Shown here one piece after another: positions 6,195 through 22,735 of a DNA stretch of 64,000 nt (within the stretch, counting starts at the first letter, position 1; the number at the start of each line of letters is the position of its first letter). The notes beneath the pieces are model-generated. The model was not told the origin of the DNA and searched no databases. It saw only the letters and a list, made by a program, of their open reading frames with translations. Position numbers and translations under genes: made by a program. The DNA comes from Patescibacteria group bacterium. GTDB lineage: Bacteria; Patescibacteriota; Patescibacteriia; XYB2-FULL-38-15. The DNA lies in the NCBI GenBank assembly GCA_041650995.1, contig JBAZJZ010000001.1, forward strand, positions 7,891-71,890, given 5' to 3'.

Positions 6195-9100
6195 GTGGCA
6201 AAACAAGAAATTTACTTTATGAACGATTTGATTAAAAGCGGGAAGAAAGTCTTCACGTTTGCCGTTGTTCTTACCACAATCGTTTGGTCAATCGGAGTTG
6301 GCGCTTTGGCACTGCCATTAGCTGCTAATGCCGTGACATCTGGCGATTTGATTAAGGGCTCTGGCACCGCCGTTTATTATTACGGCGCGGACGCGAAGAG
6401 ATATGTATTCCCATATCAGGCTGCTTATGCGTCATGGTATGGCTCCACCTTTGGTGCTGTCACCACTATGACCGACGCAGATTTAATTGCCATTCCTTTT
6501 GGCGGTAACGTGACTGTTCGTCCGGGCAAATTAGCCCAGATTGTCAGCATGGATTCTCCTTGGATGGTAATGGATCCTAAAGTTTACGCCGTAGAAAAAG
6601 ACAACGTTCTTCGCTGGGTTAAATCCGCGGACGTCGCTGTCGCCATCTTCGGCGCGACCTGGGAATCACAGATTGTCGCTATTCCAGAAGCTCTCCTCAC
6701 CAATTACACAATTGGCGCGGAAATCAATGCTGCTGGTGACTACAGTTTAGCCACTCAGCAAGCTGTTGCCTCAATCAATGAGTGCAAAGGTTTGACCGGC
6801 GTTTCCGGTGGTGGAGCCTTAACAGTCTCCTTAGCCTCCGACACTCCGGCTGCCGCTTCAGTGCCAAAGAGCGCGGCTGACGTTAACTTCACAAAGGTTA
6901 ACTTCACTGCTGGCGCCGCTGATGTTGTCATTACCGGCCTTAAGGTCACACGATCCGGTCTTGGTATTGACGCGAATTTAAGCGCCGTGAAACTTTTTGT
7001 TGATGGCGTGCAACGCGGCACTTCTCAGAGTTTAGGTTCGCTTCATCAAGCAACCTTCTCTTTGACCTCAAACCCGATTACGATTTCTGCCGGCACCACA
7101 AAAGCGGTTATGTTGGCTGCTGATATTGCTGCCGCGACCGCGTTTGATCAGCATATCTTGGGCATTGCCAATGTTGCTGATATTACCACAACTTCATCAG
7201 TTTCCGGCACGTTCCCAATCAATGGTAACGTGATGTCTTTGGTCAACACTTCAATCGGTTCCGCCACAATTTCAGGCGGTCCATTGAATCCGGGCTCTTC
7301 GTCAGGCGATGTCGGAATTGATCCGGCCGCGGTTGGTTTTAGATTTTCACAGATTAAAATTGCCGCTGGCTCAGTCGAGCCGATCGTTGTTGATCAGATC
7401 AGCGCCATCAAAAATGGCACTGCTGCCAACACTGATGTCAAAAATATTGAACTCTTCAACGATACAGCTGGCGTTTCTTTAGGAACTGTGACTGGTTTGG
7501 ATTCAAACGGCAAAGCCGTATTTTCAAACCTGAATCTAACAGTTGCCAAGGGCGCTTATGTTGAATTGTCAATTAAGGCCGATATGGCTGGCGGTTCTGG
7601 CAGAACAATCGGTTTTGACGTCCATGATGGCACATCATTCTCCGGCATGATAAAGGGTGGAACCTTTAACTTTGGTATTACCCCGACCTTTACCAACACG
7701 GTTGCTTTCTGCGACACTGGTGTTACAGATTACACCTGTCAAAGACAAACAATTAATCAGGGCTATTTAACAGTTTCAAAGAGCGCTTTAGCTCCGGCCA
7801 CTAGCAAAGTTGCCGTGGGCGGATCAAACGTTCCTTTGATGGCCTTTGATTTTGTCGTGGCTGGCGAGCCGATCAATGTCACTTCAACAGTGGTTCGTTA
7901 CACCACTGCCGATGGCACTGGTACAGGTGGAACTGGTATTAGAACGTATGTTACTAATTTCACATTAGTAACAGCTGACGGCACCATTTTGGCTGGTCCA
8001 AAAGATGGCGCTACCACCAACAACAGCGTTGGTACGGAAACATTGACCATTACTGATGGTTACACTTTGCCGGTTGGCACAACTGTGGTTTATGCTAAAG
8101 CGAATTTGGACACAAGAATGACCGCTGGAAACACGATTGTTGTTGATATGCAGACCAGCGCGATTACTGGCAAAGGCGCGAATTCTGGCAAAACCACTTA
8201 CACCACTTCAACCGGCGGAACCGTTCCTCCGGCATCTATAATCACTGGCAACACGATGACTTTGCAAGGTCCGGTATTAGCCGTCACCACAGCCGCGACT
8301 CCGGTTGTCGGCAATATGGTGGTTAACGCGCAGGATCAGGTTCTTGCCTATTTTGATTTGGATGCTTCAGGTGGTGGTGAAAACATCAGAATTTCAGCTA
8401 TTACCGTAACGGCTACTGACGCAGTAGCTGCCTCACGCCCGGTCGCTGACTTCAACAATTTTGAACTTTGGGGCGATCCGGATAACACTGACGCCACAGC
8501 AGTGAATGAACGCTTGGTGACTTCAAATTCAACCGCCACAATGGTTGACGGAGGCGCTACGACAGCGACACTGGCGTTTACGTTCCAAACCCCAATCGTT
8601 GTTTCTAAAACAGCAACTTCTCGCCTAACTTTAAAAGCAGATGTTGTTGGTAATACTACTTCTGTGACTGCATGGAATGTTGCCGCAGGCGGAGATGTTA
8701 CTGCGATTGGCGCGACTACTGGTAATACAGCCTCAAAGAGCGTTTCGGGGAATGGACAACAGCAGTCAACCCAGGCAAGCGGCACTTTGAAGGTTGAAAA
8801 AGCGGCTGATATGCCGTCTGCTGTTCAGCTCGTTTCGTCCTCAACCGGCAATGAAGTGATGAAATACAAATTCACCACTCAATATGAGCCAGTTGACATC
8901 ACGACGATCGGTCTCTTCTGCGGTAACAACGCTCAAGGCGGCACAAGCTGCACTTTGGGCAACATCGCGAAACTTTATGTTTATGCTGATGGTGTCTTGG
9001 TCGGCAATACCGGAGGCTACTCTTTAGATGCCAATGGTCTCGCTACCGTTGTCTTGGATAGCGGAACTTTGGTTATTCCAAAGGACAGCTATAAGACAAT

Positions 9101-20851: not shown

Positions 20852-22735
20852 ATGAAAACTCTTAGGATTTTCTTAATGGTCGCAGTAGTTTTAGGCGCAA
20901 GCGGAGTTAATTTTTTGCCCGAGGCGGCAAACGCCTGGACGCCGACATTAAACTCCGCCGCTTTTATTGACTCCGATCATAACGGCACAGTTGACCGCGT
21001 GAAAGTGACTTTTGATTTGAATGTTACAAGCTGCAAGTTTGAGGCGGGGGATTGGATAATTAATCCTGGAGAAATTGGATTAACCGGACCGACTGGAAGA
21101 TTGAATGGTTTTGGGATTGATGAAAATTGTAATGGGACAACTAATTATTTTTATCTCCTTGTTTCCGGCGATGCGAATGAAACCGGTTATTCGGGCGGAG
21201 GCATGATTCTTCCGGCGGATATTCAATATAGAAATCAGGGGATTTTAGACGATGTGACAGTTTCCGGCGTGCCCGCGCCAAACCAGGCGATAGTCTATGT
21301 TGATGATAACGCTTCGCCAGTTATTGTTTCCACGGTTCCTGCTGCCGGAGCGACGGGCGTAGCTATCACAACTTCGTATATCAGAGTAACTTTTTCTGAA
21401 CCAATGGAAACTAGCGCGACATCTCTTTCGATTAGCGCTGGGTCGTGGGGACCTCCTTCCTGGGGCAGCGACAATACAGTTATGACCCGTTCAAGATTAT
21501 TGTCTCCTCCTTACGATACAAATATAACAGTTTCAGCAACCGGCGAAGATAGAAATGGATATTTGCTTGCTTCTGGCAGTTCCCCGGCCGTCGGAAATCC
21601 TTGGAGTTTCAGAACAGCCGCAGATCCGGCTCTCGCGGTTTCGGCGAGCCAATCAACACTTTCCTCTTCGCCAGGAACAGTAGCGGCTGACGGCTCTTCT
21701 GTCTCGGTAATTATTGCGACTGTAAAAAATTCTTCGGGCAGCGCGCTCTCCGGAAAAACCGTGACACTTTCCTCTAGCCGTGGAGCAACAGACATAATAG
21801 CGGTTGTTAATGGAATAACTGACGCATCTGGTAAAGCCTATTTTCAAGCTCGTTCCAACACGGCGGGAGGCGCAACCTTTACTGCGGTTGCCGATGGCGT
21901 GATAATAAGCCAGACGGCAGACGTGACTTTTACGAGTGTCGCCACAAGTTCTGTTTCCGCCTCAAGATCAAGTGTTTTGGCCACGCCCGCTTCGGTCGTG
22001 GCTGATGGGAGTGCTTATTCAGTAATTTATGTGACAGTCCGCGATTCATCAGATGGTTTGCTTGCCGGAAAAACTGTGGCTCTTTCGTCTAACCGCGGAT
22101 CAGCTGACACAATTTCTATCGTGGACGGAACAACAAATTCTTCGGGTCAAGCGACTTTCCGGATTAGGTCAAGCACGACAGGAACAGCAACTCTTACCGC
22201 CGTGGCAGACGGAGTAACGATTTCCCAAACTACAACAGTATCCTTTACTGGCACCCCAGCTTTAAACTATGGAGATTTGTTTAAGGAAGCCGGGAGCACG
22301 GCAGTTTACTATTACGCGGACAACGGCAAAAGATATGTTTTTCCGACCCAGGCGATTTATTTTTCTTGGTACACTGATTTTTCTACTATTAAAACCGTAA
22401 GTCACACTATCGTGACGTCTGTTCCTCTCGGCGGCAATGTTCTCGCAAAACCTGGCACATATCTTGTCCAGTTTGTCAGCATGGATACGCCCTTCAGAGT
22501 TCTTGATCCCAAAGTTTATGTTTTGACTGCGACCGGTCAGTTGCGCTGGATTACTTCCGCCTCTGTTGCAACTTCACTTTACGGTGCTGACTGGGAAAAG
22601 AAAATTATCGCCGTGCCAGAAGTATACAAAACAAACTATGGCAATGCCATAGCCGGAGCTGACGTTAATTCAACTTCAGATTACAGCAAGACGTCAGTAG
22701 AGTTAGTCGCGAGAACGATTAGTGATCTCTATTAA
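20852..22735 (+). CDS. secreted surface protein (627 aa) with a DxDxDG module, SbsA-Ig, two Big_1 modules and the C-terminal conserved domain
   Basis: It has a signal peptide (MKTLRIFLMVAVVLGASG). It carries DSDHNGTVDRVKVTF, then SPVIVSTVPAAGATGVAITTSYIRVTFSEPMETSA, then two Big_1-like repeats (...ADGSSVSVIIATVKNSSGSALSGKTVTLSSSRG... and ...ADGSAYSVIYVTVRDSSDGLLAGKTVALSSNRG...). The C-terminal domain is GDLFKEAGSTAVYYYADNGKRYVFP...KVYVLTATGQLRWI. Confidence 0.7.
   Translation: MKTLRIFLMVAVVLGASGVNFLPEAANAWTPTLNSAAFIDSDHNGTVDRVKVTFDLNVTSCKFEAGDWIINPGEIGLTGPTGRLNGFGIDENCNGTTNYFYLLVSGDANETGYSGGGMILPADIQYRNQGILDDVTVSGVPAPNQAIVYVDDNASPVIVSTVPAAGATGVAITTSYIRVTFSEPMETSATSLSISAGSWGPPSWGSDNTVMTRSRLLSPPYDTNITVSATGEDRNGYLLASGSSPAVGNPWSFRTAADPALAVSASQSTLSSSPGTVAADGSSVSVIIATVKNSSGSALSGKTVTLSSSRGATDIIAVVNGITDASGKAYFQARSNTAGGATFTAVADGVIISQTADVTFTSVATSSVSASRSSVLATPASVVADGSAYSVIYVTVRDSSDGLLAGKTVALSSNRGSADTISIVDGTTNSSGQATFRIRSSTTGTATLTAVADGVTISQTTTVSFTGTPALNYGDLFKEAGSTAVYYYADNGKRYVFPTQAIYFSWYTDFSTIKTVSHTIVTSVPLGGNVLAKPGTYLVQFVSMDTPFRVLDPKVYVLTATGQLRWITSASVATSLYGADWEKKIIAVPEVYKTNYGNAIAGADVNSTSDYSKTSVELVARTISDLY

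Follow-up and report, generated by a model that had tools for sequence, protein, structure and literature searches.

In single-membrane bacteria other than Patescibacteria, surface proteins are anchored by modules such as SLH, CWB2, LysM and SH3b; the SLH module comprises three tandem units of ~ 55 amino acids (aa) that anchor surface-layer (S-layer) and associated proteins to a pyruvylated wall polymer. A different small repeat is found in EccB (PF05108; PDB 3x3m, 5cyu and 7np7), a part of the actinobacterial type VII secretion system (T7SS, or ESX machine) in which four repeats, R1 to R4, flank a central core in the quasi-two-fold order R1-R2-core-R3-R4. Phage endolysins carry cell wall-binding domains (CBDs) of the same fold: that of LysIME-EF1 is tetrameric, binds Enterococcus faecalis walls and loses binding upon a single Arg-to-Glu change, while PlyCB is octameric and binds a polyrhamnose wall polymer (bioRxiv 10.1101/2021.03.19.436156). 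Here, we describe a module shared by five large secreted proteins (A1254, B562, C917, D945 and E627) encoded in a 64,000-nucleotide (nt) stretch of a Patescibacteria group bacterium genome (assembly GCA_041650995.1, contig JBAZJZ010000001.1, positions 7,891 to 71,890 of the forward strand; hereafter, the window). The module defines a new, large and lineage-specific family; its predicted fold is the known EccB-repeat/PlyCB fold, and it probably serves as a wall anchor.

All five genes lie on the + strand, and every product has an N-terminal hydrophobic signal or transmembrane (TM) segment. In A1254 (6195-9959; 1,254 aa), the signal peptide is followed by an N-proximal module (aa ~ 43-198; 6321-6788), and the protein has no Pfam match. 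The module is C-terminal in the other four proteins: the secreted B562 (12306-13994), with a signal peptide, an immunoglobulin (Ig)-like Big_1/Invasin_D3 domain at aa 306-402 and the module at aa 402-562 (13509-13991); C917 (14910-17663), which is secreted or N-terminally anchored and carries Big_5 and Big_1 domains and the module at aa 723-917 (17076-17660); its paralog D945 (17833-20670), with a Big_5 domain and the module at aa 751-945 (20083-20667); and the secreted E627 (20852-22735), with one Big_5 and two Big_1 domains upstream of the module at aa 469-627 (22256-22732). This is the placement proposed in the initial annotation of the locus, and the motif string quoted there is present in the translations. 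A hidden Markov model (HMM) built from the five copies was run against all six-frame stop-to-stop pieces of the window and matched exactly five places, with E-values from 3e-67 to 3e-79 (A1254, 1.6e-73; B562, 2.7e-79; C917, 3.3e-67; D945, 9e-68; E627, 4.2e-73), while the sixth-best match had an E-value of 2. The five-copy alignment has a mean column identity of 55% and 32 invariant columns, and pairwise module identity ranges from 38 to 67% (E 6e-25 to 7e-103), with the highest value between C917 and D945. Outside the module, pairwise comparison of the five proteins revealed shared Ig-like domains only, or nothing significant. Since only these five strong matches were obtained, and since the module is conserved while its flanks diverge, the shared element is real and far above chance, as had been claimed.

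The element had been described as a single module of ~ 150 aa. That it is shared stands, but it is not one domain: it is a tandem array of a ~ 60-aa unit, present in two copies in A1254, B562 and E627 and in three copies in C917 and D945, where the module reaches ~ 195 aa. The two halves of the module, compared as profiles, match over their whole length (P 2e-4), and the additional ~ 70-aa tail of C917 and D945 represents the third unit. A jackhmmer search seeded with the third unit of C917 alone retrieved units 1 and 2 of the same proteins, and the profile on which it converged served as the unit HMM. With this model, the units were located at aa 43-116 and 127-180 of A1254 (6321-6542 and 6573-6734; independent E-values, iE, 2e-22 and 1e-12), where a short helical tail extends to about aa 198, and at aa 402-474 and 485-538 of B562 (13509-13727 and 13758-13919; iE 6e-25 and 5e-11), followed again by a helical tail. 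The corresponding positions are aa 723-787, 786-848 and 845-917 in C917 (iE 2e-20, 1e-16 and 3e-23), aa 751-815, 814-876 and 873-945 in D945 (iE 2e-19, 6e-18 and 5e-25), and aa 469-536 and 552-605, then a helical tail, in E627 (iE 9e-22 and 1.5e-9). The unit consensus is roughly G-D-L-I-K-x(5-12)-V-Y-Y-x-x-x-G-K-R-Y-x-F-P-x(2)-x-Y-x-S-W, after which come a short helix, a strand and a helix; the Lys and Arg of the GDLIK and GKR segments are almost invariant in each unit. Among the homologs gathered, the unit HMM found two units in 297, three in 91, four in 8 and one in 1.

An important question is whether the module is already known under another name. The five proteins (E ≤ 0.1), the modules alone (E ≤ 10) and 81 homologs (E ≤ 1e-4) were compared with a 2025 copy of Pfam-A, and the five proteins also with NCBIfam 2026. 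In the five proteins, the only families found were Big_1, Invasin_D3 and Big_5, all upstream of the module, and none of the three sets yielded a match to SLH, CWB2, LysM, SH3b, GW, PEGA or choline-binding models at these thresholds, in agreement with the initial annotation, where no SLH, LysM, SH3b, GW, CWB or PEGA motif had been recognized. A PHROGs search with the module returned nothing under E 0.01. Sequence searches of the PDB with module profiles of 5 and 60 sequences gave a designed beta-propeller repeat, the "AVYYC" framework of antibodies and a globin, all of which were dismissed as short and spurious. None of the 212 matches from a word-indexed search of 5.8 billion proteins carried a precomputed Pfam annotation over the module. 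The named ones were called "hypothetical", save three Joint Genome Institute (JGI) names ("adhesin/invasin", "plastocyanin" and "uncharacterized protein YkwD"), which refer to the fused domains. Eight representatives looked up individually were unnamed or listed as "hypothetical protein". The literature searched for an earlier description (Patescibacteria surface or wall binding, Candidate Phyla Radiation (CPR) S-layers, EccB, PlyCB-like domains and DUF5667) contained nothing naming the module. Thus, the description of the module as unrecognized holds for the Pfam, NCBIfam and PHROGs models, for PDB sequence relatives and for the public homologs checked; the family is undescribed in databases and literature, although at the level of fold it is of a known kind.

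That kind became apparent from structure prediction. AlphaFold2 models of the two-unit B562 module (aa 404-562; 60-sequence alignment) and of the three-unit C917 module (31-sequence alignment) reached predicted local distance difference test (pLDDT) values of 92.9 and 95.3 and predicted template modeling (pTM) scores of 0.86 and 0.87, respectively. In every unit, a four-stranded sheet with two helices is predicted, in the order beta-beta-beta-alpha-beta-alpha. For both models, the top structural match was the repeats of mycobacterial EccB1 (3x3m; Z 5.5 and 5.9 for the two models). Next, all at modest Z, came the phage endolysin wall-binding domains LysIME-EF1 CBD (6ist; 4.4 and 4.4), PlyCB (4f87; 3.5 and 3.7) and Lys170 CBD (7d55; 3.0 and 3.3), with a Streptococcus mutans domain of unknown function (3l9a; 3.9 and 4.3) ranking between the first two. 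In Foldseek, EccB1 and EccB5 filled the top eight ranks, with a probability of up to 0.84. The modeled unit thus agrees with the EccB repeat domain (~ 55 aa, a four-stranded sheet and two helices), and its predicted fold is shared with PlyCB and with the CBDs of LysIME-EF1 and Lys170, so on the models the unit has the EccB-repeat/PlyCB fold.

Is this likeness one of descent? The only Pfam match for any module was between B562 and PF05108 (profile positions 385-436, the R4 region), at 11.8 bits and E 0.097; this does not reach the gathering score of 27 bits, and the other four modules and three homologs had no PF05108 match. A profile was therefore made from EccB1 orthologs, with the Mycobacterium tuberculosis EccB1 query identical to chain 3x3m_A over the whole crystallized region. 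Units 1 and 2 each aligned with its R4 part (P 4.1e-5, probability 70%) in a consistent register, VYYYgxdGKRYvFP against mYYiDpqGVRYGvP. Their scores of 26.6 and 27.2 were reached neither by any of 60 column-shuffled controls (maxima 17.6 and 20.7) nor by the reversed control (13.3 and 14.1). Such values give moderate support to the suggestion that the unit is probably a distant homolog of the EccB repeats. According to the initial annotation, a confident match to a known anchoring domain would remove the novelty of the module; the fold matches and the R4 profile match go part of the way in that direction.

The module nevertheless lies outside the defined EccB family, because it falls under the Pfam threshold, lacks the central core domain, does not lie in a T7SS locus and varies in architecture. 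The EccB layout (a TM helix, R1, R2, a beta-sheet core, R3 and R4, in a T7SS locus with EccC, EccD, MycP and WXG100 genes) is absent here, where two or three units without a core occur at varied positions in unrelated proteins. No T7SS part (FtsK-like ATPase or EccD-type YukD) was found by Pfam in 40 window open reading frames (ORFs; 35 neighbors and the five carriers), a scan that covered ORFs of at least 100 aa and hence not those of WXG100 size. Moreover, EccB is one fixed part of one machine in Actinobacteria, whereas the module is joined to hundreds of different cargo domains in Patescibacteria. The phage CBDs differ in other respects: PlyCB and the LysIME-EF1 and Lys170 domains have no detectable sequence similarity to the module; they are single units made multivalent through rings (octamer, tetramer), whereas the multivalency of the module would come from tandem units in one chain; and they form part of lytic enzymes directed against other cells, whereas the carriers of the module are the cell's own surface proteins.

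The family is very large: in an exhaustive HMMER scan of 1.84 billion 50%-identity representatives, 5,630 proteins passed a cutoff of E ≤ 1e-3, and 2,993 passed E ≤ 1e-30. Nearly all of the 5,630 cluster representatives are from Patescibacteria. A search for related loci starting from the five-sequence alignment led to 367 stretches confirmed in GTDB species genomes, and the best 78 loci (L001-L078) were analyzed. They derive from metagenome-assembled genomes labeled Falkowbacteria (the closest, with 78% identity), Uhrbacteria, Parcubacteria, Buchananbacteria, Paceibacter or "Patescibacteria group", so that a Falkowbacteria-like patescibacterium is the most likely source of the window. A few matches are titled "uncultured Gammaproteobacteria", "Acidobacteriota", "Methylomirabilis" or "Binatia"; these are probably placeholder names or misbinned contigs, since the locus in one record so titled, OZ246416.1 (an 886-kb chromosome), is syntenic with the window.

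Of 240 complete homologs, 221 have an N-terminal hydrophobic segment. In the ORFs of the 78 loci, the position of the module is N-proximal in 83, C-terminal in 34 and internal in 9, and it stands essentially alone in 11; stand-alone proteins of ~ 180 aa that consist of the module only are common. Module genes are clustered, with 2-4 per ~ 16 kb in half of the loci (39 of 78). The fusion partners are highly varied and include Big_1, Big_7, fn3 and TIG, enzymes and an inhibitor (Peptidase_M23, Peptidase_C25, trypsin, GH10, GH114 and a chagasin-type inhibitor, I42), as well as CAP, cupredoxin/plastocyanin, the N domain of purple acid phosphatase, YHYH and LVIVD. In the M23 fusions, the catalytic domain (aa ~ 55-170) is N-terminal of the module (aa ~ 210-335), an order resembling that of wall hydrolases with a targeting domain, while fusions with CAP and cupredoxin have the opposite order, with the module directly after the signal peptide. 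This is the behavior of a targeting or retention module and not of a catalytic or cargo-specific domain.

Taken with its extracytoplasmic location, these promiscuous fusions (including M23 in catalytic-then-targeting order), the tandem units and the EccB/phage-CBD fold lead us to favor, as a somewhat probable reading, a non-covalent, multivalent anchor by which the cell keeps surface proteins attached to its own wall. Sec export would first bring the carrier proteins outside; the tandem units would then bind a component of the cell's own wall, either peptidoglycan or a wall-linked glycopolymer, non-covalently and multivalently; and the bound module would retain Ig-like arrays, enzymes, redox proteins and the major surface protein of ~ 1,200 aa at the cell surface. 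A wall exists for the module to bind, since the window encodes MurA-like, MraY and FtsW proteins for wall synthesis, dTDP-sugar enzymes (a 4,6-dehydratase, FdtA, RmlD and an RmlA-like protein), a GT-C glycosyltransferase (PMT_2) and several glycosyltransferases of families GT2 and GT4. The anchoring or cell wall-binding function suggested in the initial annotation is therefore favored by location, fusions, tandem units and fold, although we infer it from these features and the fold itself is not new.

Several observations weigh against wall anchoring. Wall binding by EccB is an idea that its authors themselves call speculative, and EccB repeats also make protein-protein contacts. The R4 match, besides its 70% probability, spans only 23-33 columns, and neither R1-R3 of EccB nor unit 3 of the module gave a significant profile match. 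The isoelectric point of the module ranges from 4.3 to 9.1 (5th to 95th percentile), a spread that rules out a uniformly basic module surface of the kind implicated in LysIME-EF1. Finally, homologs of the window GT2 genes occur in 5-8 of the 78 loci, those of GT4 in 24-27, of the epimerase in 10 and of DUF2304 in 4, counts that have no background rate for comparison and do not establish linkage of the module to glycosyltransferase or rhamnose genes across genomes.

These data raise the question of whether the partner of the module could be a protein rather than the wall. As a docking or oligomerization module, it would attach its cargo to an S-layer lattice, to a membrane-anchored receptor or to other copies of itself. 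Its nearest neighbor in structure and sequence, EccB, is a protein whose repeats are not known to bind the wall, and in the cryo-electron microscopy structures of ESX-5 (7np7 and 7nps), the EccB periplasmic domains reportedly assemble with each other. Oligomerization is obligate for phage CBDs of this fold (the LysIME-EF1 tetramer and the PlyCB octamer), and both the frequent stand-alone proteins and the clustering of module genes would suit co-assembly. However, the only conserved partner found is a sigma factor/DUF5667 pair, which accompanies the ~ 1,200-aa family only; the domain order of the M23 fusions points to the wall; and phylum-wide use on many types of cargo is more readily explained by a ligand present everywhere, such as the wall, than by one particular protein. 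We therefore consider docking unlikely, although it is the rival that survives best.

Lower still in probability is a role in attachment to other cells, with the module acting as an adhesin for a surface polysaccharide of the host or partner cell of epibiotic Patescibacteria. Patescibacteria are widely described as epibionts, which suits this proposal, as do the fold common to phage domains that recognize specific bacterial wall polymers and the adhesin-type Ig-like arrays (Big_1/Invasin_D3) of the carriers; between close relatives, moreover, the main parts of C917 and D945 diverge more quickly than does A1254 (63-66% against 75-83% identity), as would be expected of interaction proteins. The module, however, is at the wrong end to reach a host: it mostly sits right after the signal peptide, proximal to the membrane, and the Ig-like array extends away from it. 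Cargo of a housekeeping type (cupredoxins, CAP, phosphatase N domains and protease inhibitors) has no obvious need of a host, and the module is highly conserved across very different lineages, although host receptors should differ among them. We regard attachment to a host as quite improbable.

The secretion-related function also suggested in the initial annotation, that is, a secretion or sorting signal that would be read by an export or surface-attachment machine and might be removed later, like the C-terminal domain of type IX secretion or the sortase and PEP-CTERM signals, can be dismissed as very improbable, for although the module is present in all five adjacent secreted proteins, is often terminal and has its nearest relative in a secretion machine, it occurs at N-proximal, C-terminal and internal positions alike, its carriers already have a Sec-type N-terminal signal, a folded element of 130-195 aa in 2-4 tandem copies is unlike any known sorting tag, and no T7SS component was seen among the scanned window ORFs.

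If the module anchors proteins to the wall, how far does the comparison with SLH extend? As a functional analogy only, the two are alike in having tandem units of ~ 55-60 aa that occupy either the N-terminal region of a very large and conserved surface protein or the C-terminal end of enzymes and adhesins, and in being shared by many paralogous exoproteins clustered in the genome. They differ in that the module is predicted to be alpha/beta, whereas SLH is helical. The large protein on the side of the module is A1254, in which aa 211-1254 are homologous over their full length to many proteins of ~ 1,200 aa with an N-proximal module (P0148, 58%; P0207, 41%; P0160, 39%). Upstream of A1254 on the + strand lie genes for a sigma-70 factor of the extracytoplasmic function (ECF) type (4193-4801; Pfam Sigma70_r2 and r4_2) and for a DUF5667 protein (4791-6059; Pfam E 2.7e-10), the first and second genes of a cassette; homologs of both are found at most 3 kb upstream, on the same strand, of the A1254 homolog in 28 of the 33 loci that hold one. 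In the DUF5667 protein, a single TM helix (about aa 62-85) separates a short N-terminus in the cytoplasm from a long, helical part on the outside. This topology is anti-sigma-like and, together with the position of the gene, suggests an anti-sigma role; no mention of DUF5667 was found in the literature searched. Because the A1254 family is conserved, very large, secreted and Pfam-less and has an N-terminal anchor-like module, it resembles an S-layer or major envelope protein, and we speculate that it is a candidate for a major surface protein of this type. The wider reading, in which the module is a Patescibacteria-wide counterpart of SLH, used generally in this lineage for surface display, that binds a particular wall glycopolymer and the A1254 family is the long-sought S-layer or major envelope protein of these ultra-small cells, under the control of the ECF sigma/DUF5667 anti-sigma pair, is tentative, and we hold it to be rather doubtful as a whole.

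Patescibacteria (CPR) represent a large share of bacterial diversity, while their envelopes are almost uncharacterized and the majority of the large proteins that they secrete bear the label hypothetical. The ~ 60-aa unit marks thousands of secreted proteins and thus offers a practical way to list the surface proteome and to pick candidates for work on host interaction and the envelope. It also provides a hypothesis for how a cell without an outer membrane may keep hold of proteins that apparently carry none of the classical anchoring modules. The cassette of three genes (ECF sigma factor, DUF5667 protein and ~ 1,200-aa module protein) stands out as probably encoding a major component of the envelope together with a regulator of its own, and the link to EccB bears on what the periplasmic domain of EccB does in mycobacterial type VII secretion. 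Were the module indeed the counterpart of SLH, a single HMM would suffice to delimit the surface proteome in a large part of the CPR, and the EccB repeats would be a derived offshoot of an ancient wall-binding unit. If wall binding proves wrong, there remains a large domain family that lacks annotation but whose fold is assigned with confidence.

The array of five genes, A-B-C-D-E, is syntenic in the closest relatives. In L001, the identities of the five products are 80, 72, 63, 66 and 76%, respectively; over L001, L002 and L003, the A1254 orthologs are 75-83% and the B562 orthologs 70-72% identical, and the E627 ortholog in L009 reaches 81%. The 5' ends of C917 and D945 (14901-14989 and 17824-17912), 89 nt that contain the ribosome-binding site and the first ~ 25 codons of the signal or TM segment, are 96% identical, whereas the proteins encoded by the gene bodies share only ~ 40% identity. 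Such near-identity suggests that gene conversion took place or that the export signal is strongly constrained.

Directly after the five module genes lies an ORF for a 742-aa subtilase (22823-25051; Peptidase_S8 with a fervidolysin-like pro-domain) with FG-GAP repeats, homologs of which are present in 17 of the 78 related loci. The module had been reported from every large secreted protein of the locus; the five carriers bear this out, but the module is absent from this adjoining ORF, for which no check for a signal peptide was made. A subtilase, MycP, is part of ESX loci. The resemblance is probably a coincidence, because no other T7SS gene was seen in the scanned window ORFs.

Between A1254 and a tetratricopeptide repeat (TPR) gene, an IS200-like Y1 transposase ORF was identified (10103-10789, in the region 10034-11155). 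A double-hairpin element, GACAGCC-TTYA-GGCTGT ... ACACGC-TAAA-GCGTGT, occurs here in four copies on the same strand (10067-10101, 10155-10189, 10805-10839 and 11109-11143), with no further copies in the window and none expected by chance, and three tandem copies of 103 nt are found at 10825-11133, near the transposase ORF. The transposase and the hairpins look like a REP/RAYT system or IS200/IS605 ends.

The surface-protein genes are followed by a cluster for glycan synthesis (25078-41201), which includes an epimerase, a GT2, DUF2304, another GT2 and two GT4 genes, a GT-C gene (PMT_2-like, 33924-35552), a dTDP-glucose 4,6-dehydratase-like gene, FdtA, RmlD and an RmlA-like nucleotidyltransferase. 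FdtA belongs to a 3,4-oxoisomerase family known from S-layer glycan pathways. The cluster could make a wall polymer, which would be a candidate ligand of the module, or could attach sugars to the surface proteins, which are rich in Thr and Ser. Between the glycosyltransferase genes and a Pfam-less ORF of 710 aa (31783-33915, - strand), a Fic/DOC family protein is encoded (30751-31428, - strand). Beside the MurA-like gene, a 384-aa protein with a PEGA domain (41273-42427, - strand; E 3.5e-9) was detected, a small surface-associated beta-domain protein unrelated to the module.

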